A DNA stretch of 64,000 nucleotides from an uncultured Chloroflexia bacterium (GCA_963767035.1 CAVYBW010000001.1:2438547-2502546), one strand, 5' to 3'. Positions 8,783-49,006 are shown, numbered from the stretch's first letter. A program made the numbers and translations. The notes: generated by a model not told the origin, from the letters alone.

Positions 8783-8922
8783 GTTTCCTCACCCCCAACC
8801 TGCTCTCCCACGTTCGTCAGTGGGAGAGCAGGAGCACCTGTCTTCACCACGAACTGCGGCAGAACCATGGTGTTAAAGCTCTTCACCCGTTGAACGGGAG
8901 AGGAGCTGGGGTGAGGAAACGC
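8783..8922. mobile_element. MITE-like palindromic repeat, family A, with perfect 15-bp terminal inverted repeats
   Basis: Left end 'gcgtttcctcacccc' and right end 'ggggtgaggaaacgc' are exact reverse complements. Internal hairpins are 'ctgctctccca...tgggagagcag' and 'cccgttgaacggg'. The element lies in the opuCC-opuCA intergenic region. Confidence 0.65.
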
Positions 8923-8958
8923 AATCACTCACCAATTTAAGCTTAGGGAGTTGCAGGT

Positions 8959-9932
8959 GTGAGCACTATCGAGTTTCAGAATGTCCGCAAAAGTTATCCC
9001 AAAGCCACAACTGCGGCGCTCGCCGATATTTCACTGACGATCAATCGCGGCGAATTTGTGATTTTACTTGGGCCATCAGGCTGTGGCAAAACCACCTTGA
9101 TGAAGATGATCAATCGCTTGATTGAACCAAGTAGTGGCACGATTTTGCTCGATGGGGTCGATATTCAAACCGTCAATGCCACCAAGTTACGCCAGCAAAT
9201 TGGCTATGTTATCCAGCAAGTTGGCTTGTTCCCCACATGACGGTCGCCGAAAATATTGCGGTCGTGCCCAAATTGCTTGGCTGGCCCAAAGCTAAAATCC
9301 AAAGCCGCATCGACGAACTACTCAACCTGATTCAACTTGACCCAGACCAATTTCGCCAACGCTACCCGGCCCAAATCTCCGGTGGCCAAGCCCAACGGGT
9401 TGGTTTAGCCCGCGCATTGGCAGCCGATCCCGGCGTGATGTTGATGGATGAGCCATTTGGCGCAATCGATGCGATCACCCGCACCATTTTGCAAGATGAG
9501 ATGTTGCGTATTCAACAGCAATTGCATAAAACCATCGTGTTTGTAACCCACGATGTTGAAGAAGCGCTGCGCTTGGCCGATAAAATTGCAATTTTGCACG
9601 AGGGAATGATCGTGCAATACGATACGCCCTTGAATTTATTGCGCAACCCCGCTAATCAATATGTGGCCGATCTGCTAGGAGCCGATGATTTGGTGCGCCG
9701 TTTGAGTTTGATCCAAGTGCGCCATGTGCTTCAACCATTGCCCAAAAGCTATGATGCTGCGCTGGCAACGATTGAAGGTAGCCAGAATTTGCGCGAGGGA
9801 TTGAATCAATTGCTGGCTAGCAGCAGCGATCAACTGTTAGTCATCGAGCACAATCAACCAATTGGCACGCTCTCGTTAGCAGCGATTCACGCCTATCTGC
9901 ACCCTGAGGTACGCCATGAACGACATCGTTGA
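8959..9932 (+). CDS. ABC transporter ATP-binding protein (OpuCA-like, with C-terminal CBS-like region). Frameshift at 9237 splits ORFs 8959..9240 and 9237..9932.
   Basis: Walker A 'GPSGCGKTT', signature 'ISGGQAQRV', Walker B 'MLMDEPFGAID'. The break reads 'GLFPT*' then 'MTVAENI', where homologues have 'LFPHMTVAEN'. This looks like a missing C in a 'cccc' run. Confidence 0.8.
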
Positions 9933-10554
9933 TGGTTTCAACTATCTGATTACCGAGCGCGCTGATGTTTGGCAGTTGCTCGGCCAGCATGTCACAATGA
10001 GCCTGCTTGGCCTATTGATTGCAAGCCTAATCGCGTTACCATTGGGATTGTTGGTAGTCCGGGTACGCTGGTTGGCTGGCATTGTGATGGCTGTGCTGAG
10101 TGTGTTGTATACGATTCCTAGTTTGGCAATGCTGATTATCTTGATTGCGATGTTTGGCCTGAGCAAAACCACCGTGGTTGTTACCTTGGTCATCTATGCT
10201 CAAGTCATTTTAGTGCGCAATATCGTGGTTGGCATGCAAAGTATTGATCGCGCGGTAATCGAAGCGGCGCGTGGTTTAGGCATGAATCCATGGCAAATCT
10301 GGTGGCGCATCGAATTGCCTTTGGCGTTGCCAATTATGCTAGCTGGGGTGCGAATTGCCGCGATTATGTGCATTGCAATTAGCTCAATTGCTGCCATGAT
10401 TGGCGTTGGCGGCTTGGGCCAATTGCTGTTTCAAGGCATTACCTTTGATCGCGCAGATATGATCTGGGCTGGCACCATTAGCATTGCCAGTTTGGCCTTG
10501 GTTTGTTATGGCTTATTGGCTTTAGTAGAGCAACGGCTTAGCCCAAAAACATAA
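9916..10554 (+). CDS. ABC transporter permease (OpuCD-like)
   Basis: Multiple TM segments. EAA loop 'EAARGLGMNPWQIWWRIELPLA'. The start overlaps the ATPase stop. Confidence 0.75.
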   Translation: MNDIVDGFNYLITERADVWQLLGQHVTMSLLGLLIASLIALPLGLLVVRVRWLAGIVMAVLSVLYTIPSLAMLIILIAMFGLSKTTVVVTLVIYAQVILVRNIVVGMQSIDRAVIEAARGLGMNPWQIWWRIELPLALPIMLAGVRIAAIMCIAISSIAAMIGVGGLGQLLFQGITFDRADMIWAGTISIASLALVCYGLLALVEQRLSPKT

Positions 10555-10660
10555 TTGGAGCCGCGACCAAATTGCAACAATCATTGCAAACAATCTCAAG
10601 CTCCAATTATAGCCAAACCATACGATAGTTACGAGCAGCGCCGCAGCGCCATAAACAAGT

Positions 10661-11203
10661 TTAGAACCACTTTTTCTCAACAACATACTTCTGATAGAAC
10701 TCAGCATCAGAAGCCACTAAATATAAGACCGCCTGCACCAAACACACGACCCCGACCAAGGCATAGCCGAAAAAGCCAATCACAATACAGGTTAATGGCA
10801 GAAATATCACATTCGACAACAGTAAAATCAAGCCCATTTGATTATTGCCCATGTAAAAGCCGTGAATCCCAAATGGCCCCAAGAAAAAAGCCAACAAAGC
10901 GGCGACAACTTTATTTTTCTCGCTCTGCGCATAACCTTGGGGAACTTGATATTGATATGGTTGTTGGTAATTAACCATTGGTTGTTGATACTGAGCTTGG
11001 TATGGTGGTGGCTGAACTGGTTGAATTGGCTGGTCATAATTTTGATAGCCTACCGCTGGCTGAGCCGGATTTTGATAGGCTACCGTTTGAGCGCCATGCA
11101 CTGGGCTGCCTTGCAACGAGCCACCACAATTGGTACAAAACATCACATCAGGATGGGTTTGAGTGCTACAGGTTGGGCAAACTTTATAAAATGCTTGAGT
11201 CAT
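10661..11203 (-). CDS. Zinc-ribbon plus Q/Y/P-rich linker plus TM2-domain membrane protein
   Basis: N-terminal 'CPTCSTQ...CTNCGG' is a zinc ribbon. The C-terminal 'GIHGFYMGN' lies within two TM helices, as in the TM2 domain. Confidence 0.6.
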   Translation of the reverse strand: MTQAFYKVCPTCSTQTHPDVMFCTNCGGSLQGSPVHGAQTVAYQNPAQPAVGYQNYDQPIQPVQPPPYQAQYQQPMVNYQQPYQYQVPQGYAQSEKNKVVAALLAFFLGPFGIHGFYMGNNQMGLILLLSNVIFLPLTCIVIGFFGYALVGVVCLVQAVLYLVASDAEFYQKYVVEKKWF

Positions 11204-11437
11204 AACAGTTTCCTCAGCGCTTACAATAGCGGCAGTAAATTATTGAATATATTTTAGTTGCAATCGTATCTGCGTTTAAGACGTTTTTACCTGATCTTTT
11301 GTTTCAAGCTCAGCATATCAGTCAGGGCTTAGGCCGTCATCAGTCGCGAGATGCAGCGTTAATCGGTCGCATGCAGATAGCCTTTAATCGTCAATCAGGC
11401 GAAAATAGCATATCAAACTTTTGCTTGGAGTACAATC

Positions 11438-11884
11438 ATGACGCTTTATTTTTATGCAGTTTCGGCAGAATTTGGCTGCTTCTCGAACTTTTCGGCTCAT
11501 GGATTTAAGCTTGATGGCCAGTATTGGCCCACTAGCGAGCATTATTTTCAGGCCGAAAAGTTTGCTGGCACTGCCTATGCTACTAGCATTCGCTTAGCCA
11601 AATCGCCAGCAATTGCCGCGCGGCTTGGCCGCAGCCGCAAACAACCATTGCGCCCCGATTGGGAAGCAATCAAAGACGATGTAATGCGCCAAGCGTTGTT
11701 CGCAAAATTTCGCAGCCACGCTGATATTCGGGCAATCTTGCTGGCAACCGCTGATCAACCAATCGTTGAGAATGCGCCAGGCGATTATTATTGGGGCTGC
11801 GGCGCTGATGGCTCAGGCAAAAATATGCTTGGTCAATTATTAGTTGAAGTTCGCCAAACCCTACGTGATGAGGAAATTGCATGA
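11438..11884 (+). CDS. NADAR-domain protein (YbiA-like N-glycosidase / ADP-ribose-processing family)
   Basis: 'FSNFS...WPTSEHYFQAEKF...YWGCGADGSGKNMLGQLL' matches E. coli YbiA nearly motif for motif. Confidence 0.8.
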   Translation: MTLYFYAVSAEFGCFSNFSAHGFKLDGQYWPTSEHYFQAEKFAGTAYATSIRLAKSPAIAARLGRSRKQPLRPDWEAIKDDVMRQALFAKFRSHADIRAILLATADQPIVENAPGDYYWGCGADGSGKNMLGQLLVEVRQTLRDEEIA

Positions 11885-12108
11885 GCCATGTCCATTTTTC
11901 AATCGAACAATTGCACCATTTTCAATGTGGCGCATGTAGTGGCTGGTGGAGCATTGGCGATGCTCCACCACGCGAGCATTGGTTTTGCCCATGGTGTGGC
12001 ACCCAGTTAATCAATGCTGGCCCGTTGCCGCCATTAGCGCCAAATAGCGACCTGCCCGAAAGCCCAAATAGCAACCCAGCCTTGAATGATGGCCTAGCAA
12101 TCGATTGA
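11881..12108 (+). CDS. Small zinc-ribbon protein. Overlaps the NADAR stop as ATGA.
   Basis: 'CGACSGWW...CPWCG' are paired CxxC motifs. The 4-nt overlap suggests translational coupling. Confidence 0.4.
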   Translation: MSHVHFSIEQLHHFQCGACSGWWSIGDAPPREHWFCPWCGTQLINAGPLPPLAPNSDLPESPNSNPALNDGLAID

Positions 12109-12193
12109 GCATTTGCTGGAGCAGCAAGCGCTAGTTGGCAAGCATCGCCGAATCTTGTACGATGGCGCAAGCAGTTTTGTGAAGGAGCCGTCT

Positions 12194-12532
12194 ATGTTAA
12201 ACCCCGCTGATCAGCTGTTACTCAAAAGCCTCTGCAACGATTTGGTTGCGGTAGAAGAACAATTAAGTGAACTCGAAACCCATCGTGAAGCAATCCGCGC
12301 GCGGATCTCGGAATTGGTTGAGCAAATGGGCGGCAAAATTCAATTACGTGGTTTTGGCACCTTGCAAATCTCAAATCCAGCGGTGGTCGTCTCATACGAT
12401 CGCAAGGGCATTGAACAATTGGTGCAGCAGTTAGAAGACGCTGGCAATTTTGCGCTGGTTGATGCAATTCAAAGCTCGCGCAAGGAATCGATGCGGAGCG
12501 GTGGTTTGCGCATTATGCGTGAAAAAATCTAA
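12194..12532 (+). CDS. Hypothetical coiled-coil protein
   Basis: ATG behind RBS 'gaaggag'. The ORF tool extends it to 12113, which is probably spurious. Confidence 0.4.
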   Translation: MLNPADQLLLKSLCNDLVAVEEQLSELETHREAIRARISELVEQMGGKIQLRGFGTLQISNPAVVVSYDRKGIEQLVQQLEDAGNFALVDAIQSSRKESMRSGGLRIMREKI

Positions 12533-12535
12533 GCT

Positions 12536-13645
12536 ATGCGTGTATCTGCCCGTTTATTATTCAAAAGCGTATTAATTGTGCTGATTTGGGGCGTAGCGGT
12601 GCTGCAATTGTACCGCCAGCGCGTGCCACCAGCCTTTAATCTGCCTGCTGCGGCGAGCGTCCAAACTCAGCACCCAATTGTGGGAATTCATACCCGCTTG
12701 ATGGGCTTGGATGAAACCACGATTCGGCGTACTTTGCAGCAAGTGCGCGAAATGGGCGCAACCACCATCATCGATCTGTTTCCGTGGGCGGTGATTCAGC
12801 CGCGTTCGGCCAATAGCTATGAGTGGACGGGCAGCGATATGTTGATTGCCCATGCCCAACGTCAAGGCCTGACGGTGATCGCCCGCTTGGATTTTGTGCC
12901 AGCTTGGGCGAGGCCTGCCAACACCAACGATCGCTATATCGCGCCCGATCACTATGTGGCATATGCTGATTTTGTGGCGGCGTTTGCCCAGCGGTATGTG
13001 CCACAGGGCGTGCGGGTGTTGCAAATTTGGAACGAGCCAAATTTACGCTTTGAATGGGGCGATCGTGCGCCCGATCCGGTGGCCTATGCCGAACTCTTGA
13101 AAGTGGTCTATCCACGGGTCAAAGCAGTTGCGCCCGAAGCCATAATCACTTTATCAGGGCTTGCGCCCGGTGGCCCGACCGGGCCGATCGATCCTCAAAC
13201 CTTGAGCGTTAATGACCTGACCTTTCTAGGATTATGTTTAGCTGAAAAGCCACCGTTTGATGCAGTTTCGGTGCATGCCTATGGCTCGATTAATCATGCC
13301 GATCAGCCGCCCGACCCAACGATTACCAATTTTCGTCGCACTGAACTGATTCATGATGTAGTGCTAGCGGCGGGCTATGATGTGCCGTTTTACATCACTG
13401 AGGGTGGCTGGAACGATCATCCACGCTGGCCGAATGCGGTTTCGCCACCAATCCGCGTGCAAAACACGCTTGCCGCTTATGCTTGGGCCGAGCAACACTG
13501 GCCATGGATGCAAAGCGTCGGCTTTTGGCAATTCTCATTGCCCAATCTGACCTACACCTATGCCGATAATTATACTTTTGTCGCGCCTGATGGCATACCT
13601 AAGGCTATTTATTATGCCGTGCAGCAATTTACTCAACAGCCCTAG
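12536..13645 (+). CDS. Membrane-anchored clan GH-A (TIM-barrel) glycoside hydrolase, GH5/GH39-like
   Basis: N-terminal TM helix. 'IWNEPN' contains the acid/base Glu and 'ITEGGW' contains the nucleophile Glu, both typical of clan GH-A. Confidence 0.55.
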   Translation: MRVSARLLFKSVLIVLIWGVAVLQLYRQRVPPAFNLPAAASVQTQHPIVGIHTRLMGLDETTIRRTLQQVREMGATTIIDLFPWAVIQPRSANSYEWTGSDMLIAHAQRQGLTVIARLDFVPAWARPANTNDRYIAPDHYVAYADFVAAFAQRYVPQGVRVLQIWNEPNLRFEWGDRAPDPVAYAELLKVVYPRVKAVAPEAIITLSGLAPGGPTGPIDPQTLSVNDLTFLGLCLAEKPPFDAVSVHAYGSINHADQPPDPTITNFRRTELIHDVVLAAGYDVPFYITEGGWNDHPRWPNAVSPPIRVQNTLAAYAWAEQHWPWMQSVGFWQFSLPNLTYTYADNYTFVAPDGIPKAIYYAVQQFTQQP

Positions 13646-13687
13646 TAGTAATACAGAACCACCTCAACATTCCAAAAAATGAATTTT

Positions 13688-13795
13688 AGGGGGTGCAGGG
13701 GGATTAAAGCCCCCTGCGTTTCCCTCCGGCGGAGGGACGGAAGGGTGGCGAACCATAGTGAGAACCAATAGATCTTTAACCACGAACTATGCTTG
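13688..13795. repeat. Dispersed structured repeat, family B
   Basis: 'gggggattaaagccccc' hairpin, 'tccctccggcggaggga' hairpin, then 'cggaagggtggcgaaccatagtg...ctttaaccacgaact'. Close copies lie at 21661..21712 and 21826..21905, with a fragment at 8840..8880. Confidence 0.6.
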
Positions 13796-13844
13796 ACATA
13801 GCCCAAAAGATTCTCTATACTCAGCTGGTAAGTGGTCTGACCAG

Positions 13845-14555: not shown

Positions 14556-16157
14556 ATGCGCCGTTGGAATGGTTGGGGCGATGAGAGCAAAGATTATGTG
14601 GTTAAAGCTGGTATTTTAGGCTTACTCAAGCAATTAATTGGGGTTGGCCCAATTCCCAGCGATGTAACCCTAGCCGAGGTTATTGCCCACGTGCCAGCAT
14701 CACGCTTGCCACACCACGACTTGATTAGCACTGATCCTGAGCTGCGAATTCGCCATGCTCGTGGCCAGAGTTTTGCCGATTTGGTGGCCTTGCGCAGCGG
14801 CGATTTGGGCCAAATTCCCGATGGTGTGGCCTTTCCCCAAACCAGCCAAGCGGTGCGCGAGTTGCTCGATTGGGCTAGCGCCAATACCGTAACCCTGATT
14901 CCCTATGGCGGCGGAACCAGCGTCGCAGGCCATATTAATCCAGTTGCTGGCGAACGGCCAATTTTGACCGTTAGCCTTGCCAAACTCAATCGCTTGCTGG
15001 AAATCAACCCAACTGCGCGGCTAGCACGGTTTGGGGCAGGCATCAAAGGTCCAGATCTGGAAGCACAATTGCGTGCTTTGGGCTTTACGCTCGGCCATTT
15101 TCCCCAATCGTTTGAGCTTTCGACGCTTGGCGGCTGGATTGCCACCCGTTCAAGTGGCCAGCAATCACTTGGTTTTGGGCGCATTGAGCAATTATGGGCT
15201 GGCGGACGAATTGAAACACCCCAAGGCGCATTAGAATTAGCGCCATTTCCGGCCTCGGCGGCTGGCCCTGACTTACGTGAAATGCTACTTGGCTCGGAAG
15301 GCCGCTATGGCATTATCACCGAAGCCACAGTACGCATTCGGCCAATTCCTGAGCTTGATGTGGTGCATGCAATCTTCTTCACTAATTGGGAACAGGCCCA
15401 AACTGCGGCCCGCACGATTGCCCAAGCCAACCTGCCGTTGGGAATGTTGCGGCTGAGCACGCCAACCGAAACCATGACCAACCTCGCCTTGGCAGGCCAC
15501 GAACGAGCGATTGGCTTGCTCGAAGGCTTTTTGAAATTGCGTGGCGTTGGCGCGGAAAAATGTATGCTGTTGGTTGGCTTTATTGGCAGCAAAGCCCAAG
15601 TTGCGCTCAGCCGCCAAGCAGTTTTGCGCTTGACCCGCCAACACGCTGGGGTGCATATCGGCCAAACCTTTGGCAAGGCATGGCGACATGGGCGGTTTCG
15701 CGCACCCTATTTGCGCAATCGGCTGTGGGAATTGGGCTATGGCGTGGATACGGTCGAGACTGCCACGACCTGGGAGAATCTCAACCCATTGTTAGAAACG
15801 CTAGAGCAGCGTTTGCGCAATGGCTTAGCTGCTGAGCACGAACAGGTGCATGTCTTCACCCATCTTTCACATTTCTACACTACTGGTTCCAGCATCTACA
15901 CTACCTATGCGTTTCGGCTAGGCGCTGATGCCCAAGCAACCATGGCCCGTTGGCACCAACTGAAAAGCGCTGCCAGCCAAGCAATTGTTGCCGCCGGCGG
16001 CACGATTAGCCATCAACATGGCGTGGGGCTTGATCATCGGCCCTATCTTGAGGCTGAAAAAGGCCGTTTGGGCATTGGCGCGTTGCAACAACTTGGCCAA
16101 CATTTCGACCCGCAAGGCTTGCTCAACCCCGCCAAATTATACGAGGATGGCCAATGA
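14556..16157 (+). CDS. FAD-linked oxidase of the alkyl-dihydroxyacetonephosphate synthase (AGPS) family
   Basis: 'RRWNGWGDESKDY', 'IPYGGGTSVAGH', 'ELSTLGGWIATRSSG', 'GSEGRYGIITEATVRIRPIPE' and 'ISHQHGVGL' track the conserved blocks of eukaryotic AGPS. The gene is 18 nt downstream of the fadR-like gene. Confidence 0.75.
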   Translation: MRRWNGWGDESKDYVVKAGILGLLKQLIGVGPIPSDVTLAEVIAHVPASRLPHHDLISTDPELRIRHARGQSFADLVALRSGDLGQIPDGVAFPQTSQAVRELLDWASANTVTLIPYGGGTSVAGHINPVAGERPILTVSLAKLNRLLEINPTARLARFGAGIKGPDLEAQLRALGFTLGHFPQSFELSTLGGWIATRSSGQQSLGFGRIEQLWAGGRIETPQGALELAPFPASAAGPDLREMLLGSEGRYGIITEATVRIRPIPELDVVHAIFFTNWEQAQTAARTIAQANLPLGMLRLSTPTETMTNLALAGHERAIGLLEGFLKLRGVGAEKCMLLVGFIGSKAQVALSRQAVLRLTRQHAGVHIGQTFGKAWRHGRFRAPYLRNRLWELGYGVDTVETATTWENLNPLLETLEQRLRNGLAAEHEQVHVFTHLSHFYTTGSSIYTTYAFRLGADAQATMARWHQLKSAASQAIVAAGGTISHQHGVGLDHRPYLEAEKGRLGIGALQQLGQHFDPQGLLNPAKLYEDGQ

Positions 16158-17759
16158 ACCCACGTTTGCAATGGAATGGCGCTTGGCGCGAACGCACGTG
16201 GCATGAGCTTGACCAGCCATGGGATGTGATCATCATTGGCGGTGGGATTACCGGAGCAGGCTTATTGCGCGAAGCAACCCGCTCGGGCCTCAAAGCCCTG
16301 CTGCTCGAAGCACGCGATTTTGCTTGGGGCACTTCAAGCCGCTCATCAAAATTAGTTCATGGTGGGCTACGGTATTTGGCCCAAGGCCAAGTGCGGGTAA
16401 CCTATGATTCAGTGGTTGAGCGCGAACAGCTCTTAAATGAAGCGCCAGGTTTAGTCGGGCCGTTGGGCTTTTTGATTGGCCTGCCACAGGGCAAACCGCT
16501 GAAACGTTGGGTTTATCAGGCTGGATTATTGGCCTACGATGCCCTTGCGCGACGCAGCGAACAGCATTATTTGAGCATGCCCAATTTGCGATTACTTGCG
16601 CCATACCTCAACGATGCCACATTAGCGGCTGGTTTGCGCTACAGCGATGCCCAAACCGATGATGCGCGTTTGGTTTTGCGCATTTTGCGCGAAGCAGCAG
16701 CAGCAGGCGCAACGTTATTAAATTACTGCGGCAGTTACGCAATTGGTGCGTGAAGATCAGCAAGTAGTTGGGGTTGTGGTGCGAGAGCAACTCAGCCAAC
16801 GCGAGCAAACACTCAAAGCTACAGCAGTAATCAATGCTACGGGCGTTTGGGTCGATCAATTGCGTCAACAGATTCAAGCGCCAGCTAAAATGCGCCCACT
16901 GCGTGGCAGCCATTTGGTGTTTGCCCAAGCCCAATTGCCACTGACACAAGCAATCAATTTAGAGCATCCCCGCGATCGCCGCCCGGTCTTTTTTGTGCCA
17001 TGGGAAGGCGTGAGCATCGTTGGCACCACCGACCTTGATCACGAGCCAGATTTGTGGCAAGAGCCAAGTATTAGCCCCGCTGAAGTTGATTATTTATTTG
17101 AAGCAGTTCAGAAGGCGTTTCCCAGTTTGGGTTTAGGCTTGAGCGATGTGATTTCGACTTGGAGCGGCGTGCGGCCTGTGGTCGATACCGGCGCGAGCGA
17201 TCCGTCCAAGGAATCGCGAGATTATGTCTTGTGGCAAGAGCAAGGCTTATTGACGGTAACTGGCGGCAAATTAACTACCTTTCGTTTGATCGCACTTGAA
17301 GCTTTGAAGCTATTACGCCAACGCTTGCCAAAAATCAAGCTTTGGCCGCATGCACCACGGCTCAATCCGGCTCCCGCTGATTTAGCTGGCAATCTCGCAC
17401 CGTTGATTAAGCAACGTTTGTTGGGGCGCTACGCCGCCGAAGCACCGGTGATGCTGCAACAATTGCCAGCCGCTGAATTTGGATCAATTGATGGTTTGCC
17501 AAGTTTATGGGCCGAAATGCGCTGGGCAGCTCGTTGCGAAGCAGTAACCAATTTGGGTGATTTGCTGTTGCGGCGTAGTCGTTTGGGCATATTACTAGCC
17601 CATGGCGCAGCCGCCTATCACGAGCAAATTCAGGCGATCTGTGCTGAGGAGTTGGGCTGGGACGCAGCACGCTGGCAAACTGAGTGGCATAGCTATCAAG
17701 CATTAATTGCCCAGCATTATGGCTTGCCAACCAGCCGTGTTAATGCTGCTCTAATTTGA
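16154..17759 (+). CDS. glpD: FAD-dependent glycerol-3-phosphate dehydrogenase (GlpD/GlpA-like). Frameshift near 16720-16730 splits ORFs 16154..16753 and 16743..17759.
   Basis: 'DVIIIGGGITGAG' is the FAD motif and 'SSRSSKLVHGGLRYL' follows. The second ORF continues with 'VVGVVVRE...VINATGVWVD...RGSHLV'. The start ATG overlaps the AGPS stop as ATGA. Confidence 0.75.
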
Positions 17760-21392: not shown

Positions 21393-21425
21393 GGGCGCTA
21401 CCTATAAGCCAGTTATTTCATCATA

Positions 21426-21905
21426 CCAGCCTCAAACTAGCACCTAGGTGCAAAACCAACGTTCCCTCACCTCAACCCTCTCCTGACAAGGGTGGGTTTT
21501 ACAAAGACTTAGTGAATGTGGATGGTTATGATCCCCTCACCCCAGCCCTCTCTCCCGCCCGCGAGGCGAGGGGGAGTCATAGCTTGGTTGTGACGCTTCG
21601 AACCACACCATGGTAGATTCACCGGAAACCGTGTGCTAACTACCAAATATCCTCGAGGTGGCAGAGATTAAAGCATCTCCCTCAAGCAGAGGGACCGAAG
21701 GGTGGAGAACAAGGGATCAGGATTCAGTGGTCAGGGATGAGCAACTCGGAAACCGCAAAGCACGTGAAGAGCCGAAGCAAGGTTTGGGTATTAGGCAGCA
21801 TAACACTATTCCACAGCGTAAATATTCGGGGGATGAAAGCCCCCGCGTCTCCCTCCAGCTGAGGGACGGAAGGGTGGAGAATTTTGATTCAATCGTGAGG
21901 ACCAA
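21426..21905. repeat. Cluster of dispersed repeats: two family-A palindromic copies (21452-21582) and two family-B copies (21661-21712, 21826-21905)
   Basis: 'gttccctcacctcaaccctctcc', 'tcccctcaccccagccctctctcccgcccgcgaggcgaggggg', and 'gggggatgaaagcccccgcgtctccctccagctgagggacggaagggtggagaa'. These also explain the spurious 168-aa ORF 21658..22164. Confidence 0.65.
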
Positions 21906-21963
21906 AAGCTTTATGGCGGCGATCCCATTGCTGAGATCGCCGTTATTGCACCGAGATTTCAAT

Positions 21964-24102: not shown

Positions 24103-24299
24103 GGCGACAATCTCCTTTGATTGAGGACATTCAGCGTTGGGTATTGATCGTAGGTAGAACGAGGCTATGATGCGATGGGCTACACGAGTGAATGTCCAAG
24201 ATTCCAGAGCTAATTGAGGAACATTCCCATCAGCGATAATAGTCTAAATTTTTAAAGAGTCAATTCAAATTTTAAGTATTTCTTTAGAATTTCAAACAA

Positions 24300-24334
24300 C
24301 AAAGTCGCCAGCTATGTGCTTAGCTGGCGACTTC
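24300..24334 (-). terminator. Probable terminator for htpG
   Basis: Perfect hairpin 'aagtcgccagct...agctggcgactt' with a T-rich tail on the minus strand. Confidence 0.45.
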
Positions 24335-24454
24335 TTCAATCCTCTAGGCAGTTGTTTTTAGTAATAATTTAGACTTTACCTTTGGCGCGATCGTTGTCCA
24401 GCATAATTATTTGAGGCGTAATCAGTCGCATGTTGGGGATTCTAGTGGCTTGAA

Positions 24455-24648
24455 AGTTCCCTCACCCCCAGCCCCCTCTCCCACCTAGCGGGCGAGGGGG
24501 AGTCGGAAAACGAATAATCTTGCTTTTCCACACGGGGCGCGGAGGAGTCCTGATCCAAAAATGCTGGTTTCTCGATCCAATCTTGATCAAACCACCATAT
24601 CAAGCCCCTCTCCCGCTAGGTGGGAGAGGGGCTGGGGTAAGGGAACTT
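24455..24648. mobile_element. MITE-like element, family A (~194 bp) with ~21-bp TIRs
   Basis: Left 'aagttccctcacccccagcccc' and right 'ggggctggggtaagggaactt'. Sub-terminal hairpins are 'cccctctcccacctagcgggcgagggg' and 'cccctctcccgctaggtgggagagggg'. Confidence 0.65.
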
Positions 24649-24651
24649 GAT

Positions 24652-26526: not shown

Positions 26527-26769
26527 AGGTCTCTACTCCTTATGAAAAAATCTAAATCGGAATTTAAACCGCTAGGCCGATTGTAGCATAGCCAAGCCTG
26601 CTGCGAGAAGCTTTCTACGTTAGCATTGTGTTGGAGATGCGGCATAAGACTGAGGCCAAACGAGCCAAAACTTGGTATAACTCAACTATTCTTTTACCTT
26701 GGAGGCATTTCATGCAAACACTATCACTCACTGCTGGCATTGTTTGGGTTAAGTATCAGCAACGATAAA

Positions 26770-27121
26770 CGATTCCCTCATCCCCCAACCTCACAAGGGT
26801 AGGTTTTTAACAATGGTATGGTTGGATGGACAAGAGTTCATGATTCCCTCACCCCCCAACCCCCTCTCCCACTAGACGCGGGCGAGGGGGCTTACGGGGC
26901 TAGGTTTTTAATCAAGGCTCGTGGTGCACCATTCCCCTCTCCCACTGGATGGGAGAGGGGGAGATGCCCTTGTTCACCGACGCATTGCGAACGAACCATT
27001 GTGTTAAAACCCCTCGCACGTAACGCGGGCGAGGGGTTGATGAGGGAACGCAACCAATCATTAAACCCTTGTAACAAGCCTCACTTGTCGAGCGATCAAG
27101 GGGTTGGATGTGAGGGAATCG
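26770..27121. mobile_element. Nested family-A palindromic repeats (outer TIR pair plus about three inner copies)
   Basis: Outer ends 'cgattccctcatcccccaacc' and 'ggggttggatgtgagggaatcg'. Inner pieces include 'tgattccctcaccccccaaccccctctcccactagacgcgggcgaggggg', 'cccctctcccactggatgggagagggg' and 'cccctcgcacgtaacgcgggcgagggg'. Confidence 0.6.
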
Positions 27122-27172
27122 TAGCAACCGCGCTTATACTTGCCATGCTGGGTTAACTTTTTCTAGCAGGAG

Positions 27173-33592: not shown

Positions 33593-33597
33593 GGGCA

Positions 33598-40085: not shown

Positions 40086-41228
40086 ATGTTGCCGTTGCAG
40101 ATTGTACCCGTGCGCAATGCCCGCCAGCGGCAGCAGTTTATTCGTTTTCCGTGGAAGGTCTATCGTGGCGCGAATCCCGACCCATTGTGGGTTCCGCCGT
40201 TATTGCTCGAACGCGAACGCTTTTTTAACCCCAAGCATGGCGGCTTTTTTGCCCATGGTGATGTGCAATTGTTTCTGGCCCAGCGCGGCGCGGCAATTGT
40301 TGGCACGATCTCGGCTCACATCAATTTTCTGCACAATCGTACTCACAACGAGCATATTGGCTTTTTTGGCTTTTTCGAGGTGCTTGACGACCCTGAAGCC
40401 GCCGCCACATTGCTGCAAACCGCTTGCGAGTGGGTGCGCGATCGCGGCTATAAAGCGATTCGCGGCCCGATGAACTTTTCAATTAATGATGAATGTGGCT
40501 TGTTGATCGAGGGCTTTGAGCTAGCGCCTGTGATGATGATGACCTATAATCCGCCACGTTATGTTGAGTATATTGAGCAACAGGGTTTTGGCAAGGCCAT
40601 TGATTTATATGCATGGGTGGTTGATCAACAGAGCTACGCTGAAAAAGGCCGTGGCCTGAAGATCGAGCGGGTTGCTGCTTTGGCCCAAGCCCAAACCGGC
40701 TTGAGTTTTCGCAAACTGAATATGCACCGTTTTGCCGCAGAAGTTGAGGCTGGCTGGCATGTTTACAATCAGGCTTGGGCCAACAATTGGGGCGCAATTC
40801 ATATGAGCTTGGCCGAATTCCGCCATTTGGCCTATAGCTTTAAGCCGTTTCTCGACCGCGAAGTGATGATTGTGGCTGAAGATCAGGGCCGCATGGTTGG
40901 TTTATTAATCGCCGTGCCCGATATTAACATTCCGTTGCGTTATAGCGATGGGCATTTATTGCCATTTGGTTGGCTCACAATGCTCCGCCACAAGCGTAAT
41001 ATTAACCAAATGCGGGTGTTAATTATGGGTGTATTGCCTGAATATCGGCGCCGCGGCATTGATGCAGTGTTTTATCGCGAGCTTCGCAATGCTGGCCTCA
41101 AGCGTGGCTATCATACCGCCGAAATGTCGTGGATTCTCGAAAATAATGATGTGATGAACAATACCATTGCTGGGCTGGGCGGGCGGCGCTACAAAACCTA
41201 TCGCATCTACGAAAAATATTTTGCTTAA
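40086..41228 (+). CDS. GNAT-fold N-acyltransferase-like protein (Acetyltransf_6/FemAB-like architecture)
   Basis: About 380 aa. The 'FPWKVYRGANPDPLWVPPL' N-terminus is common to this uncharacterised acyltransferase family. Confidence 0.45.
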   Translation: MLPLQIVPVRNARQRQQFIRFPWKVYRGANPDPLWVPPLLLERERFFNPKHGGFFAHGDVQLFLAQRGAAIVGTISAHINFLHNRTHNEHIGFFGFFEVLDDPEAAATLLQTACEWVRDRGYKAIRGPMNFSINDECGLLIEGFELAPVMMMTYNPPRYVEYIEQQGFGKAIDLYAWVVDQQSYAEKGRGLKIERVAALAQAQTGLSFRKLNMHRFAAEVEAGWHVYNQAWANNWGAIHMSLAEFRHLAYSFKPFLDREVMIVAEDQGRMVGLLIAVPDINIPLRYSDGHLLPFGWLTMLRHKRNINQMRVLIMGVLPEYRRRGIDAVFYRELRNAGLKRGYHTAEMSWILENNDVMNNTIAGLGGRRYKTYRIYEKYFA

Positions 41229-41295: not shown

Positions 41296-41339
41296 ATTCC
41301 CTCACCCCAAACCCCTCGCCCACGACGCGGGCGAGGGGC
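41296..41339. repeat. Family-A palindromic repeat copy
   Basis: 'attccctcaccccaaacccctcgcccacgacgcgggcgagggg'. Confidence 0.6.
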
Positions 41340-42489: not shown

Positions 42490-43341
42490 TTATAGAATAT
42501 TAAGAATTGTTTGGTTTGATGTACGCTGTGCAATCAGCCTTGTTATATAATCTAATTCCATTCTTGCATCAGCTTGAAGTCCAAGGCTTCTCGCAATTCC
42601 ATTAGCATCAGTGCTTAAGCGAGTCGATAGTTTCAACTTTAGTTCATTATCCAAATCTTTCTCTAGCTGATATGCATGAATATGAGTAGAGTCAGAAATA
42701 TTAACTGTTGGATGAATGTGAGAAAAGTTGAATTCACCTTGCATATAGTTTAAGAATCTATCTTGGATTACTAAAACTAGTTTTTTGTTGATATATTCAA
42801 ATGTTTGAACTTTGTGATGCATTTGCATCATGATTGTTTTAGCAGTCATTTTCCAGTTAATACCATAGGGCTTTAATAAATCAGATTCACCAAAATCAAC
42901 AGCCAGACCTAAAGATTTCAGCAATAACTGGCGAGTAGGCCAGACAGTTCCAGTTGTATCAAGTGTTTGTAATTCAATCCCAACAAAGTCGTGTACAACT
43001 TTATCTTTCATTGAAACTAAGAAATAATCAACATTACCTCCAGGAATTGAAATTTCAGGAATTAAATGTAATTCATTTCCAGGTTCATGTAAGGTTAGTA
43101 AATGAAGGCAATCAATAAATATTTGACGACGTTGAGTTAGTCGCGTAGGGCAAATAATAATTGGTTCATTTAATTTTCCGCTAAGTACAGTACATGTTCC
43201 TATTGATATATTAGGATTACTTTTACGTACTTTATAGCATTTGCGATTTAAGAATACGCATTGCTGTTGATCAACAATATCAATCCAGTTTAATCGAATA
43301 TTTTCTGTGGAATGACCATAAAGTTCAACTATATTATTCAT
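42490..43341 (-). CDS. Putative Type II restriction endonuclease, partner of the adjacent methyltransferase
   Basis: No family motif recognised. Low GC, a 4-nt start/stop overlap with the MTase, and the size (283 aa) are typical of REases. Possible PD-(D/E)xK-like 'DYFLV...VGIELQ'. Confidence 0.5.
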   Translation of the reverse strand: MNNIVELYGHSTENIRLNWIDIVDQQQCVFLNRKCYKVRKSNPNISIGTCTVLSGKLNEPIIICPTRLTQRRQIFIDCLHLLTLHEPGNELHLIPEISIPGGNVDYFLVSMKDKVVHDFVGIELQTLDTTGTVWPTRQLLLKSLGLAVDFGESDLLKPYGINWKMTAKTIMMQMHHKVQTFEYINKKLVLVIQDRFLNYMQGEFNFSHIHPTVNISDSTHIHAYQLEKDLDNELKLKLSTRLSTDANGIARSLGLQADARMELDYITRLIAQRTSNQTILNIL

Positions 43342-44429
43342 TTTATTGAATCAATCCTTTCTTGAGTCAAATTCAAATATTCAGGTGATAAATCAATGCC
43401 AATAGATTTACGCTTAAGCGTTTTAGCAACAATCAGTGTAGTGCCTGTCCCACAGAATGGATCTAGAATTATCCCATTTGGTGGACAGGTAGCAAGAATT
43501 GGGATACGACATAGATCTGTTGGGTAAGCAGCAAAATGTGTATTACGTTTTTGAGTATCTTCAGGAAGAATATCCCATACATCTGTTGGCTTGCTCCCAT
43601 TGGGATGGTAACGTAAAAAATAGAATCCTCTATCACGTAACTCTTTAGCTCTACCTGAAATCTTTTCTTTATCAGAATGAGTTGTTCGTTGTTGTCCGCG
43701 AATCACCATTCTAAAGTCAGCAATCTCACCTGATGCAATACTAGCAAGCATCTGTTGTAGCGATTGAAAAGCGATTACTTTCTCTGCATCTGTCAAAGTA
43801 GTCGATAGTTCAATTTGACGTTTGTAACGAATACCTGAAACTCCTGTAGCAGATACAATTACTCCATTAACAACCTTTGAGGAACGTGGTTTAGTACGAA
43901 TAGAATCTAAATCATAATAATATTTAGGTTGTTTGACGAAATGAAATAAATATTCATGTACATTACCTAGCCTATCCCTTGCTGTATCCATACCACTTTT
44001 AACTTTATTCCAAATGATATCATTTCGTAGAATCCATTGATTTTCATCGATCAGTGTGAGAGCAATCCTCCAAGGAATACCAAGTAAATTCTTATTATGA
44101 TATGAATCGCCCATATTAAGCCAAAAAGAACCTTTAGATTTCAATACTCTTTTACATTCACTAAATACATTCATTAAATTTTCAATAAATTCCTGATATG
44201 TGTCTTCCATACCAATTCCATCATTTTCATATTGTCTCTTCTGCCAGTATGGAGGGGATGTCATAATCATATCAATAGATTCGCTAGGTAGGTTCTTAAG
44301 AATATAAAATGCATCTCCAAGTAATAAAATTGGGTTTCTATTATCATTATCTAAATATTGAGATAAAATATTTTTTTCAGTATATATATTTAATTTTGAT
44401 CTACCATAAACTGTAGCCATAAGAAACAC
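43338..44429 (-). CDS. Beta-class DNA methyltransferase (probably N4-cytosine, SPPY type)
   Basis: 'IMTSPPYW' is motif IV and 'LDPFCGTGTTLIVA' is motif I. Low GC. Confidence 0.8.
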   Translation of the reverse strand: MFLMATVYGRSKLNIYTEKNILSQYLDNDNRNPILLLGDAFYILKNLPSESIDMIMTSPPYWQKRQYENDGIGMEDTYQEFIENLMNVFSECKRVLKSKGSFWLNMGDSYHNKNLLGIPWRIALTLIDENQWILRNDIIWNKVKSGMDTARDRLGNVHEYLFHFVKQPKYYYDLDSIRTKPRSSKVVNGVIVSATGVSGIRYKRQIELSTTLTDAEKVIAFQSLQQMLASIASGEIADFRMVIRGQQRTTHSDKEKISGRAKELRDRGFYFLRYHPNGSKPTDVWDILPEDTQKRNTHFAAYPTDLCRIPILATCPPNGIILDPFCGTGTTLIVAKTLKRKSIGIDLSPEYLNLTQERIDSIK

Positions 44430-44494
44430 CTCTAAATTAAGTGATGCAACTATATTAATGTTGCATCACTGTACATGATATTCTATAAGATTAA

Positions 44495-47252: not shown

Positions 47253-48202
47253 CGCCGCTGTTCCTCATCCCACGCAATGTTCCACGCCACTGCTCGGCGT
47301 AAGCCTTCGGCTAAAGCAACTTGGGGCGTGTAACCCAAGAGTTGGCGCGCTCGCCCGATGTTGGCCACATAGTAAGTGACTTCACCAGCGAGTTTTGACG
47401 GTTGCACATTAATCGTTGCTTCAATTTGCAAGGCCTCGGCGATCAATTCGGCCATACGAACCAGGGTATTGCCTTCGCCATAGGCTAAATTAAAGGTCTG
47501 ATTGGCAACGTGGCCACTGACAATTCGCTCGATGCCACGCACAATTCCATCGACACAATCATCGACGTAGGTGAAATCGAGGGTTTTTTCACGCCCAAAG
47601 ACGGTCACAGGTTGGCCGTCGCGGATGCGGCGAATGAACAGGGGAATTACCCGTTCCATACGCTCGATGTCGTTATCGTAGCGCCCATAGACATTCGAAA
47701 ATCGAAAGACTAAATAGGGCAGATTGTAACATCGGGCATAGGAATAGATAAATGCTTCGCCGCTGATTTTTGAAGCCGAATACGGGCTTTCGGTATACAC
47801 AAAGTCGGCTTGGGCTTCTTCGGTTAAGTAGCGATGAATATCACCATAGACTTCACGTGATGAGCTAAAAATGATTGGCACTTGTTGATGGCGACAGTAT
47901 TCCAATACGTTGTAGGTGGTCATCACGTTTTCCAACGCTCGGTGGGGATAGGTGACCAGTTCATGGACTTTGGCATTGGCCGCCAAGTGTACTACGACAT
48001 CGGGTTTAGGATAGGGCACGCCGCCGATGCCGCCTTCGAAATCGCGGTAGGGTGCGCCAAGATCCTGAATCACATACTCAAAGGCTTTGGTCCACGTGTT
48101 GACTCGTTGATCAACTCCAAACACTTCATGGCCATCTGCGAGAAGGCGTAGCGCCAAATTGGTGCCAATCTGCCCACTGGAACCTGTGATCAAAACCAAC
48201 AC
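47249..48202 (-). CDS. NAD-dependent epimerase/dehydratase (SDR, UDP-sugar epimerase-like)
   Basis: 'VLITGSSGQIGTNL' is the Rossmann motif. A YxxxK catalytic motif is present. GTG start behind 'aaggag'. The stop overlaps the HK start. Confidence 0.75.
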   Translation of the reverse strand: MLVLITGSSGQIGTNLALRLLADGHEVFGVDQRVNTWTKAFEYVIQDLGAPYRDFEGGIGGVPYPKPDVVVHLAANAKVHELVTYPHRALENVMTTYNVLEYCRHQQVPIIFSSSREVYGDIHRYLTEEAQADFVYTESPYSASKISGEAFIYSYARCYNLPYLVFRFSNVYGRYDNDIERMERVIPLFIRRIRDGQPVTVFGREKTLDFTYVDDCVDGIVRGIERIVSGHVANQTFNLAYGEGNTLVRMAELIAEALQIEATINVQPSKLAGEVTYYVANIGRARQLLGYTPQVALAEGLRRAVAWNIAWDEEQRR

Positions 48203-48309
48203 GGGAGACTCCTTGCTTAGTATGGTGTGGCTGCGATTATAGCATGCGGATTTGGCGGTGTGAAAGCTGCAAGCCCAATCCATGCCGCAAGTGAGCTTGC
48301 AGCACGTTT

Positions 48310-48555
48310 CTAGGCTTGTTGGGCGAGATAGGCAGCGATTAATGTTTCAACTTCGCCGGCCTCGGCATGACGTTCGGTCTGAAGTTTGCTATAGAGCAGC
48401 TGCCCATTAACTACGACTTCAAAACAACCACCCTTCGCGGGAATCAGGCTCAGTTGCGCAATCGCTTGGCGATGAATGTCCAACAGTTGGGCTGCCAAAC
48501 TGACAGCACGCGGGGTGTAGTTTCAATCCATGCAAAATGTAATTGTGATCTGCAT
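48310..48555 (-). CDS. selW: SelW/Rdx-family selenoprotein with in-frame TGA (Sec) at codon 11. ORF tools report only 48310..48498.
   Basis: ATG at 48555 sits 7 nt after 'aggagg'. Translation is 'MQITITFCMDU NYTPRAVSLAAQLL...GGCFEVVVNGQLLYSKLQTERHAEAGEVETLIAAYL'. This parallels human SelW ('VVYCGAUGY...GFFEVMVAGKLIHSK'). TGA is at 48523-48525. A hairpin 'gctgtc agttt ggcagc' lies 15 nt 3' of the TGA. Confidence 0.6.
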
Positions 48556-48678
48556 AGCGAGCCTCCTATATCAATTAACCATAGGTTTATTATAGCTCTA
48601 TCTCTCAGCCCATAAGCGCATAGAACAGAGAGCATAGAGCATAGTAGATTAGGCTATGGTCTATTGGCAGGTTTGACC

Positions 48679-49006
48679 TCTCACCTCCTAGCCTGCTCTC
48701 CCTTCAAGGATAGGTTTTAACAAAGGGCTAGTGGATGGTCATATTAATAATCCCCTCACCCCCTATCCCCCGCTCCCACTGAACGCGGGCGAGGGCGAAC
48801 CGTGCCTCCATTTCCCATGGATCTGCGAAAACCACCATATGAAGCCCCAGCCCCGAGCCACGGGAGCGTGGCTGGGGTCAGGGCATCTTAACCGACTACC
48901 CTTGAACGCGGGCGAGGGGGAACCGTGCCTCCATTTCCCATGGATCTGCGAAAACCACCATATGAAGCCCCAGCCCTGTGGCGCGGGGCTGGGGGTGAGG
49001 GAATGC
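48679..49006. repeat. Family-A repeat cluster containing a ~110-bp direct duplication
   Basis: 'gaacgcgggcgaggg(c/g)gaaccgtgcctccatttcccatggatctgcgaaaaccaccatatgaagccccagccc' occurs at 48781-48868 and again at 48904-48991. The cluster ends in 'ggggctgggggtgagggaatgc'. Confidence 0.65.

Follow-up and report, generated by a model that had tools for sequence, protein, structure and literature searches.

Six intergenic loci in the 64-kb window (the whole stretch of DNA analysed, 64,000 nucleotides) carry copies of a dispersed palindromic repeat, hereafter Family A, that contains no gene. Its core TCCCTCACCCC occurs 11 times with one mismatch allowed, against 0.39 copies expected, a count that none of 100 shuffles reached. 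A search of the window for the three-block end module described below, with at most one mismatch per block, returned six full modules and eight hairpins, while 30 dinucleotide shuffles returned nothing. Moreover, a profile built only from loci outside Herpetosiphon matched the six loci (E = 6e-9 to 5e-3) but no other part of the window, and the list of loci drawn up in an earlier, sequence-only reading is therefore complete. That reading had described dispersed, intergenic, nested palindromes with terminal inverted repeats (TIRs), and a proper multiple alignment bears it out, with the repeat present at 6/6 loci. C/G run lengths in the window are uncertain, because three frameshifted genes suggest homopolymer errors.

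The first element (E1, 8783..8922; unstranded, as are all six but the fifth) is a complete ~140-bp unit defined by inverted-repeat, alignment and profile evidence. As had been proposed, it lies inside the opu operon: a binding-protein gene with an OpuAC domain (7826-8764) stops 19 nt ahead of it, and an ABC ATPase gene (8959-9932) follows after 37 nt. It opens on the left with a degenerate BoxC-type module (TTTCCTCACCCCCAACC plus the hairpin CTGCTCTCCCAC/GTGGGAGAGCAG), followed by a core (..GAACCATGGTGTTAAAG..) and, on the right, a hairpin and GCTGGGGTGAGGAAA. The perfect 15-bp TIR noticed earlier is confirmed (GCGTTTCCTCACCCC / GGGGTGAGGAAACGC), and the RNA fold reaches -83.4 kcal/mol (z = -9.5). 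The second element (E2, 21461..21712; block search and profile) is a composite of a variant outer arm (21461-21530), a left BoxC-type module with a partial core (21531-21609) and a variant, 'D15-type' module at the right end (21656-21709). The copy originally placed at 21452-21582 is thus real but merely the left part of this composite, which reaches ~21712 and is closed by the variant module. E2 lies between two minus-strand genes, downstream of one for GH26 and upstream of one for HATPase, and is absent at the orthologous site of H. geysericola. The third element (E3, 24455..24648) spans 194 bp with near-perfect 45-nt inverted ends, the 27-nt arms of which are 96% complementary. Its right end is 4 nt from the stop codon of htpG, a minus-strand gene, and its RNA fold has z = -8.6.

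Two larger elements occupy divergent intergenic regions. E4 (26772..27121), a 350-bp mosaic in the htpG/MFS promoter region, has outer variant arms (26772-26842 and 27053-27121) around an inner unit (26843-27052) with an additional hairpin segment. E6 (48679..49006) comprises a variant outer arm (48679-48749), a unit (48750-48886) and a partial tandem second unit (48896-49006) that is 87% identical to the first over 105 nt. We rejected a description of 26770-27121 and 48679-49006 as simple nested insertions, because one and the same junction between arm and unit is seen at 21530, 26842, 48749 and also at a further locus, L064; each instead combines an outer variant arm with one or two ~140-bp units into a mosaic. 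By comparison, E5 (41296..41339, plus strand) is a solo module, TTCCCTCACCCCAAA-CCCCTCGCCC-acgacgc-GGGCGAGGGG followed by CGTTTGTTGA, between convergent genes and 68 nt past the stop of the gene at 40086-41228. It is the top terminator-like site in its region, with 10 pairs, 9 of them G-C, and a T-rich tail.

A related variant end module, the 'D15' family, is found at 13685..13752 on the plus strand (GGGGGATTAAAGCCCCC, the hairpin TCCCTCC/GGAGGGA, then CGGAAGGGTGGCGAA), with other copies at 21656-21709 and 21828-21881. Its stem shows a compensatory change to CCCGCC/GGCGGG in relatives. Three open reading frames had been called spurious products of Family A: those at 26818-27156 and 48731-49072 do lie inside repeats and have no Pfam match, but the one at 21658-22164 takes its start from the variant module family, not from Family A proper.

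The end module is ~40 nt long and reads outward as three blocks: CCCCTC(G/T)CCC, a loop, GGGAGAGGGG, a short linker and GGGGTGAGGG. In the ~140-bp unit, two inverted modules with their third blocks outermost enclose a ~60-nt core that is specific to Herpetosiphon and in which AACCA and TTAAAG are conserved. These units combine with two diverged types of module, in the way that BIMEs are assembled from REP units, and the resulting mosaics are as long as 352 bp. Both hairpin flavours recognised earlier are present (CCCCTCTCCC/GGGAGAGGGG and CCCCTCGCCC/GGGCGAGGGG), the mixed form CCCCTCTCCC...GGGCGAGGGG being the most frequent. The Herpetosiphon consensus folds into an outer stem and two hairpins, and RNA folds of single copies have z = -8 to -9.5. 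Copies within the genome are old, with cores ~70% identical, and nothing points to recent activity.

The ends are those of a known repeat. The sequence-only reading had seen a 'TIR plus hairpin' without identifying the motif, and we rejected the idea of a new transposon terminus: the blocks match the published BoxC/PIT/TMECO motif, CCCTCNCCC-loop-GGGNGAGGG-linker-GGGTGAGGG, which is the closest known system, described as BoxC repeats or PIT (potential intrastrand triplex) elements from E. coli and further Proteobacteria (Bachellier et al. 1990s; Hoyne & Maher 2000, 2002; Holder et al. 2015, PMC4666352). The triplex motif given there is 5'-CCCTCNCCC N3-6 GGGNGAGGG N3 GGGNGAGGG (Holder et al. 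2015, PMC4666352). Family A blocks are identical to this motif and to the 23 E. coli copies, and the Herpetosiphon consensus agrees with E. coli type 'A mm' at 27/27 block positions. The two systems share three 9-mers in a conserved order (CCCTC[T/G]CCC, GGGAGAGGG, GGGTGAGGG) and a frequent G.A mismatch, the recurrent 'mm' variant CCCTCGCCC...GGGAGAGGG. Six window modules have the block order CCCTCNCCC, GGGNGAGGG, GGGNGAGGG on one strand, and the shuffles have none. As in BoxC, Family A is intergenic without strand bias, often forms inverted pairs, lacks neighbouring mobility genes or an associated transposase, and varies by presence, absence and small rearrangements among relatives.

The differences are of length, arrangement and host. 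The strict ITxF pattern of Holder et al. (loop 3-6 nt, linker exactly 3) finds no copy in the window, because Herpetosiphon first loops measure 7-9 nt and linkers 3-7 nt. Third blocks are outermost in Herpetosiphon and in most cross-phylum matches listed, around a core or second hairpin, whereas they face inward in the E. coli pair examined. Herpetosiphon also has a 60-nt core particular to the genus and two variant forms of the module, and the host belongs to the Chloroflexota; the text of PMC4666352 contains no occurrence of 'Herpetosiphon' and does not mention that phylum. Judged by their blocks, Herpetosiphon modules are a length variant of BoxC/PIT/TMECO with the same block set.

The family is not confined to the window. 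A genome-collection scan placed the end module at at least 115 loci in at least 12 phyla, almost unchanged over its 40 nt and with a nearly invariant third block. The complementary G block, absent from the search pattern, follows in 116/130 matches listed. The matches listed include 213 three-block modules in 110 loci and 42 inverted pairs with third blocks outermost, 9 of which are ~50-nt single-hairpin palindromes; 3-nt loops predominate in this cross-phylum sample. Beyond Herpetosiphon, matching is limited to the ~45-nt module, and cores are lineage-specific.

Orthologous sites vary between species, and full, solo, remodelled and empty states were seen across five of them. At the opu site, both H. 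aurantiacus DSM 785 and H. giganteus also have an element at the E1 position, H. aurantiacus having a 'D15' module where the window has E1. The E3 site holds a full element in H. llansteffanensis, a solo module in H. aurantiacus and H. gulosus, and none in H. geysericola. The E4 site holds a 133-bp unit in H. llansteffanensis, a ~95-bp decayed copy in H. gulosus and 35 nt of unrelated filler in H. aurantiacus and H. geysericola. On the local tree, each of these two sites requires at least two events, and gains versus losses are not polarisable. One E. coli BoxC pair is comparably variable: among 5,426 genomes it occurs in full, turned round at its site, without its centre, or not at all.

How such elements spread is best considered against other short repeats. 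The REP/BIME/REPIN elements of Proteobacteria, associated with RAYT transposases, are likewise short, G+C-rich imperfect palindromes whose inverted doublets form long hairpins, and Family A shows the REPIN layout of two inverted palindromic units, a spacer and a long hairpin fold. Both build mosaics with other motifs, lack target duplications, receive insertion sequences (ISs) in their loops, and occupy intergenic and intra-operon positions, including sites after binding-protein genes with an mRNA-stabilising use that is presumed for Family A. The earlier comparison with REP/ERIC was apt: one copy sits behind the binding-protein gene of an ABC-transporter operon in three species, and one solo copy is terminator-like. 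Unlike REPs, Family A lacks a GTAG-type 5' tetranucleotide and has an extra third block, and its module is conserved across phyla while REPs are species-specific. We found no GTAG-like 5' tetranucleotide beside the palindrome, the flanks outside the CCCTCACCC block being weakly pyrimidine-preferring, and no RAYT (Y1 HUH) gene among the window ORFs scanned. The best reading of Family A is a mosaic of palindromic repeats that resembles REP/BIME or REPIN elements and lacks target-site duplication.

The sequence-only reading had instead called the copies MITE-like and suggested that a transposase encoded elsewhere may mobilise them. As a classical MITE, Family A would be a deletion derivative of an IS, with TTCCCTCACCCC termini bound by a DDE transposase encoded elsewhere and moved by cut-and-paste. 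In size and form Family A qualifies: like Correia/NEMIS, ERIC/IRU, RUP and Nezha, it is dispersed, non-coding, multicopy, intergenic, bounded by TIRs, 100-350 bp long (below the ~500 bp usual for MITEs) and presumably co-transcribed with its neighbours. Orthologous sites are patchily occupied, and the three CCCTCNCCC sub-repeats per end could serve as multiple protein-binding sites. The hairpin 'mismatch' disappears when the two ends pair, and the ends are therefore exact inverted repeats as DNA. Yet those MITEs have target-site duplications (e.g. TA), and several have an identifiable parent IS; neither was seen here. Among the matches listed, the flanks of 48 inverted pairs from various phyla were inspected and none showed a target-site duplication; 10 full Herpetosiphon copies and the E. 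coli empty allele showed none either. The inverted repeat stops at the block in 34/48 of the pairs, as chance predicts. No transposase gene appeared among the window ORFs scanned or in the annotation of syntenic loci, and no IS with matching TIRs in the window or ~1.1 Mb of other loci. The sole IS between such ends (locus L122, 15124-16365) is bounded by inverted repeats of its own, GTTTAAGSGCGGACAGGT, and is inserted in the loop of a hairpin. Published searches likewise found no transposase near E. coli copies, and no mobilising enzyme has been reported (PMC4666352). Since the ~70% core identity also argues against recent bursts, we consider a classical MITE unlikely.

A second alternative holds that the module is a non-mobile DNA structural motif, a triplex or G-quadruplex (G4) with an i-motif opposite, selected or tolerated in place and acting on replication, recombination or supercoiling to cause local genome instability. 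The G-rich strand of every end is a predicted canonical G4 and triplex former. The window holds six canonical G4 motifs, all in Family A ends, against 1.2 in shuffles, and the block order is the one that a purine-motif intrastrand triplex requires. The E. coli motif forms a triplex in vitro (PMC4666352), and raised local variability has been published for it. Every G-rich end equals the Klebsiella tract KP-PGQ-5 GGGAGAGGGCCGGGGTGAGGG or a one-base variant, and G4 formation by this tract in Klebsiella is published. The bacterial G4 literature concerns isolated regulatory tracts; here the tract ends a repeated palindromic element in which its complement competes in cis as a hairpin. G.T wobble mismatches are commoner on the G-rich than on the C-rich strand (54 vs 32 outside Herpetosiphon, ~39 vs 4 within it), a weak comparison because copies are not independent. 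Against a purely structural origin, purine/pyrimidine runs would suffice, yet three 9-mers in fixed order recur across phyla with an almost invariant third block. The module also travels with lineage-specific flanks as one unit, which indicates copying and not independent origin. According to published work, no triplex of the E. coli motif was detected in vivo, and purine-motif triplexes do not form in RNA. This explanation, too, seems improbable to us.

Several copies look like 3' hairpins of RNA. A hairpin and CTTTTTGT lie 9-14 nt downstream of the htpG stop in three species: the tail accompanies the solo module of H. aurantiacus and H. gulosus and, in the full element of H. llansteffanensis, the hairpin nearer to htpG, while the window copy (E3) has lost its T-run. 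Within the window, only E5 has the hairpin plus T-run terminator form. The opu copy is kept directly behind the ABC-transporter binding-protein gene in three species; REP sequences reportedly hold the equivalent position in E. coli malE-malF (attributed to Newbury et al. 1987). A host cis-regulatory RNA element copied by ordinary recombination, whether terminator or mRNA-protecting 3' stem-loop, is nevertheless very unlikely as a general account, given that T-rich tails mark only 8/116 (~7%) of the cross-phylum modules listed, E4 and E6 each stand 5' of both flanking genes, the paired and mosaic forms far exceed what a terminator needs in size, E. coli PIT elements are published as having neither promoter nor terminator activity, and ordinary recombination leaves one 40-nt module in a dozen phyla unexplained.

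Combining these observations, we propose, with somewhat better than even confidence, that Family A represents the BoxC/PIT/TMECO palindromic repeats in Herpetosiphon, spreading in a REPIN-like manner, with some copies serving as RNA 3' hairpins. Family A would multiply as non-autonomous palindromes, the likely route being a single-stranded hairpin or cruciform intermediate acted on in trans by a putative enzyme, not a cut-and-paste DDE transposase. Because no mobilising enzyme was found, this propagation step is one that we infer. Later turnover would proceed by deletion, inversion and internal replacement between inverted arms, and the G4 and triplex potential of the G-rich strand at every end may account for the local instability. 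Inserted copies would be transcribed as very stable stem-loops, and those just downstream of genes (opu, htpG and 41296) may end or protect the upstream mRNA and be retained for that reason. Such a role makes no sense for E4 and E6, because both lie in divergent promoter regions, where copies are presumably tolerated passengers.

The BoxC/PIT class itself has long been known. We raise, as a rather doubtful idea, that its module marks the recognition ends of tiny mobile palindromes that all belong to one pan-bacterial class, leave no target-site duplication and are moved through single-stranded hairpin intermediates by a conserved putative enzyme. If so, cores peculiar to one lineage, for instance the AACCA...TTAAAG segment of Herpetosiphon, would serve as cargo or as sites for cofactors, and the near-identity of 40 non-coding nt in at least 12 phyla would reflect enzyme constraint and horizontal transfer, not structure alone.

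Family A, the dispersed palindromic repeats at six intergenic loci of the window, is a new Chloroflexota member of the known, unexplained BoxC/PIT repeat class. BoxC/PIT repeats have been known for thirty years, and to our knowledge they have neither an accepted function nor a known means of spread. The described sequence is present at all six loci named by the sequence-only reading, delimited here as E1 (8783-8922), E2 (21461-21712), E3 (24455-24648), E4 (26772-27121), the solo module E5 (41296-41339) and E6 (48679-49006). Its TCCCTCACCCC core (at most one mismatch) occurs 11 times in the 64 kb against 0.39 expected, a count reached by 0 of 100 dinucleotide shuffles, and the window holds six complete three-block modules and eight hairpins alone, where 30 shuffles gave none. 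When a profile HMM was trained solely on other phyla, it matched the same six loci (E = 6e-9 to 5e-3) and no seventh in the window. Because it recovers exactly these six, the earlier list of loci is complete and the family is not circularly defined.

Other identities for the repeats were set aside. Rfam at gathering thresholds found no family in the whole window, the sole repeat match at E <= 1 in 21400-27200 (Antizyme_FSE) is sub-threshold and due to chance, and a search for a tRNA or tmRNA origin found neither. The repeats do account for spurious ORFs, which is of use in annotation. Three such ORFs had been ascribed to Family A, and all of them lack Pfam matches; two lie inside the repeats, while 21658-22164 begins in a different, related repeat family. 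All six canonical G4 motifs in the window lie within Family A ends (shuffles, 1.2). Lengths of C and G runs in the repeats are uncertain, as three apparently frameshifted genes suggest homopolymer assembly errors. These genes encode an ABC ATPase (ORFs 8959-9240 and 9237-9932; a single gene of 324 aa in relatives), a DAO/GlpD-like oxidoreductase (16154-16753 and 16743-17759; a single 529-aa gene) and a HATPase-domain protein (19257-20837 and 20853-21392; a single gene of 711 aa), and are either pseudogenes or products of such errors.

The basic unit is ~140 bp long. Alignment of ten copies from the window and other Herpetosiphon species gave the consensus TTCCCTCACCCC(CC)AACCCCCTCTCCCAC-TGAAC-GCGGGCGAGGGGGAGCA, ~35 variable nt, then AAGAACCACGATGTTAAAG-CCCCTCGCCCGC-loop-GGGAGAGGGG-TT-GGGGTGAGGG-AC. 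In the consensus fold the termini pair as an outer stem and each end forms one hairpin; the middle has no conserved structure, and AACCA and TTAAAG are invariant. Single copies fold far more stably than shuffles (z = -8.3 to -9.5). Both ends, read outward, are one module, CCCCTCGCCC-loop-GGGAGAGGGG-linker-GGGGTGAGGG. Folded locally, the hairpin has a G.A mismatch (T.C on the other strand), which is gone once the left end is paired to the right end; each end is therefore the exact inverted repeat of the other. The terminal inverted repeats described in the sequence-only reading hold up on a proper alignment. Also confirmed are the perfect 15-bp inverted repeat of the 8783 copy, the place of that copy between the genes for an OpuAC-domain protein and an ABC ATPase, and the two hairpin flavours.

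Longer loci are mosaics. At 21461, 26772 and 48679 a diverged outer arm (TTCCCTCAYC..AAGGGTRGGTTTTWAACAA..GGATGG..) precedes the unit. The arm-unit junction is identical at all three and recurs in H. llansteffanensis (locus L064), so the composite itself propagated, rather than arising by nested insertion three times independently. A third module type, the D15 family (GGGGGAT(T/G)AAAGCCCCC, hairpin, then ACGGAAGGGTGGNGAA), has the layout of the other modules: TTAAAGCCCC, hairpin, linker and a G-rich block, GGGTGGNGAA. Copies lie at 13685-13752, 21656-21709 and 21828-21881 in the window, and at 11973-12039 and 15273-15341 of L117 and about 3560-3625 of L170, two of the compared loci. The D15 hairpin stem shows compensatory change between species (TCCCTCC/GGAGGGA versus CCCGCC/GGCGGG), and the family probably represents a variant of the end module in the Family A mosaic system.

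The window has other repeats unrelated to Family A, in the regions 28731-28967, 1642-4135, 59306-60685 and 22262-22545. ORF 28560-28982 contains three tandem repeats of 69 bp at 28731-28967, and the largest direct-repeat families are ACN/CCN codon runs (Thr/Pro linkers) of secreted proteases and glycoside hydrolases. ORF 49151-49726 has two L7/L12 C-terminal-like segments (49454-49534 and 49637-49717; 70% DNA identity), and this duplication is an unusual arrangement for the domain. At 42490-44429 a NotI-like restriction endonuclease gene adjoins an N6/N4 DNA methyltransferase gene; since this is the lowest-G+C stretch of the window (0.44 versus about 0.51), it is likely an acquired restriction-modification island.

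Searching full texts for the G-rich blocks turned up a described bacterial repeat, 5'-CCCTCNCCC N3-6 GGGNGAGGG N3 GGGNGAGGG (Holder et al. 2015, PMC4666352). It was named first BoxC in E. coli, then PIT element (Hoyne and Maher) and then TMECO (Holder et al.), with 3,610 copies counted in 262 proteobacterial genomes (PMC4666352). The same study detected neither promoter nor terminator activity, saw no connection with gene function, noted greater local variability between strains, and placed a transposase nearby 'never' (PMC4666352). The Herpetosiphon ends share three 9-mers with the 23 E. coli sequences printed there, 13 of which also have the Herpetosiphon G.A mismatch (PMC4666352). We verified one BoxC pair in the hrpB-mrcB spacer of E. 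coli MG1655, and in Klebsiella the identical G tract has been characterised in the literature as a G-quadruplex. The strict published pattern (loop 3-6, linker 3) has no copy in the window, because loops there are 7-9 nt and linkers 3-7 nt. Judged by their blocks, Family A modules are a length variant of the BoxC/PIT set. Our literature search found no paper joining Herpetosiphon to such repeats and, after Holder et al., no mechanism for BoxC/TMECO.

The range of the BoxC module extends far beyond the Proteobacteria and Cyanobacteria of its original description. Scanning a genome collection (one genome per species, 596 Gb) with the pattern TCCCTCACCCC-N1-6-CCCCTCKCCC yielded at least 115 loci. 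Lineages were read off record titles, and the matches listed come from Pseudomonadota (alpha, beta, gamma), Chloroflexota (five classes), Acidobacteriota, Armatimonadota, Bacteroidota, Planctomycetota, Verrucomicrobiota/Lentisphaerota, Cyanobacteriota and Nitrospirota, and also from Geomonas, Omnitrophota, two candidate-phyla-radiation lineages, Turneriella and Entotheonella. Copies are thus not confined to the window, occurring in other Herpetosiphon species and in other phyla. By rough calculation, a pattern of 21 specified bases and six gap lengths should match 596 Gb by chance ~3 times at equal base frequencies and a few tens of times at most at 65% G+C. What decides against chance is the complementary GGGNGAGGG block, absent from the search pattern, which follows 2-14 nt downstream in 116 of the 130 matches listed.

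The cross-phylum sample carries the bias of its search pattern, and its figures describe the matches listed. Among these, relaxed matching gave 213 three-block modules in 110 loci. The variable position covaries (C-rich orientation: T/A 130, G/C 5 and C/G 5 versus T.C 44 and G.A 0). Third blocks, the last G-rich ones, are outermost in 42 neighbouring pairs, nine of them minimal ~50-nt palindromes with one hairpin in common; tail-to-tail pairs number a further 19, and solo modules 83. Within a lineage, flanks specific to it move with the module, for example in Thiomargarita, Gallionellales/Nitrosomonadales and Herpetosiphon. In this repeat class the module crosses phyla and the cores are specific to lineages. 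When the Herpetosiphon consensus was run by BLAST against 72,556 plasmids, nine matched, through the ~45-nt module only. Phages find no support as main carrier: 2.9 million viral contigs hold 42 stretches, none paired.

Orthologous sites show that the repeats turn over. HtpG of the window is 96.5-98.2% identical to that of named Herpetosiphon species, and we compared htpG neighbourhoods of H. geysericola, an H. aurantiacus-like contig, H. llansteffanensis and H. gulosus. DNA identity over this region points to ((aurantiacus, gulosus), (window, (geysericola, llansteffanensis))) as the tree. On the 3' side of htpG, a full element occurs in both the window and llansteffanensis, its boundaries the same and its interiors unrelated; aurantiacus and gulosus have the htpG-proximal module alone, followed by CTTTTTGT, and geysericola has no element. 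The htpG-MFS spacer holds a 350-bp mosaic in the window, a 133-bp unit in llansteffanensis, a decayed copy of ~95 bp in gulosus, and an unrelated 35-nt filler common to aurantiacus and geysericola. On the local tree each htpG site requires at least two events, which may be gains or losses. In relatives (compared loci L117, L121, L122 and L123, about 11876-12990), htpG is separated from its downstream neighbour by a 178-aa RNA-ligase-domain gene, which is in two fragments in H. geysericola; this gene is missing from window 24103-24651, a spacer that holds only the 194-bp repeat element.

The opu spacer after the binding-protein gene carries a standard unit in the window and in H. giganteus. In H. 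aurantiacus DSM 785 a mosaic of outer-arm and D15-type modules lies where the window has the Family A unit; this site shows retention with remodelling, and its D15-type modules tie the D15 family to the same repeat system. The hrpB-mrcB BoxC pair of E. coli has four states among 5,426 complete genomes (loci L116 and L124-L127): full; turned round in place together with its flanking arms; cut down to one hairpin after loss of the centre; and absent. The absent allele has 11 nt in place of the pair and no duplication.

How might such a repeat multiply? Its architecture is that of a palindromic mosaic, and most likely it is a non-autonomous palindrome that would spread via a single-stranded hairpin or cruciform intermediate, handled in trans by a putative enzyme on the analogy of REPINs and RAYTs, where no duplication is left either. 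The inverted arms would then undergo deletion, inversion and internal replacement, and the host may occasionally use the transcribed stem-loop. G.T wobbles show a weak excess on the G-rich strand among copies that are not independent, compatible with a single-stranded functional form.

Three observations support host use of the stem-loops. Of the hairpins in its region, E5, 68 nt past a stop codon, most resembles a terminator. Three species share a conserved T-run behind the htpG module, and in three species the element behind the opu binding-protein gene is retained. Newbury and colleagues reportedly found in 1987 that a REP in the corresponding malE-malF position stabilised the upstream mRNA. 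Family A may act at the RNA level. That its role is purely one of RNA is argued against by E4 and E6, which lie upstream of both neighbours, by T-rich tails on only ~7% of modules among the matches listed, and by E. coli PIT elements, which do not terminate transcription (PMC4666352).

A new MITE with a matching transposase is not supported. No direct repeats flank 48 inverted pairs or the full Herpetosiphon copies. No transposase, integrase or Y1 gene was found among scanned window ORFs, nor does the syntenic H. geysericola locus show one in its Pfam annotation. We searched for a parent IS among listed segments between inverted modules 0.4-6 kb apart, inspecting the one with a transposase-domain annotation. 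It is a decayed, G+C-rich DDE_Tnp_1 IS at 15124-16365 of L122 (H. llansteffanensis CP188824.1), sitting exactly in the loop of a BoxC-type module hairpin and recalling IS elements that target REP loops. It has inverted repeats of its own (GTTTAAGSGCGGACAGGT); the data examined contain neither target duplications nor a parent IS. A palindromic target was also rejected: at E1, E3 and E4 the inverted repeat continues for 3-5 nt into the flanks, and across phyla the repeat ends at the CCCTCACCC block, with extension 0, in 34 of 48 pairs, in agreement with chance. Core identity among copies within the genome is only ~70%, so the family is old. From the sequence-only reading, REP-like palindromes with a possible RNA role survive; in the data examined the MITE finds no support.

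A mobile palindrome whose stem-loops the host may at times use is the reading we prefer. Chloroflexota are a new host for the BoxC module and present a new architecture, in which it forms the inverted ends of larger mosaics. Herpetosiphon has full, solo, remodelled and empty alleles at shared sites, together with one conserved intra-operon copy; because allele states vary and one copy is conserved within an operon, the genus can serve as a system for testing both mobility and RNA-level function.
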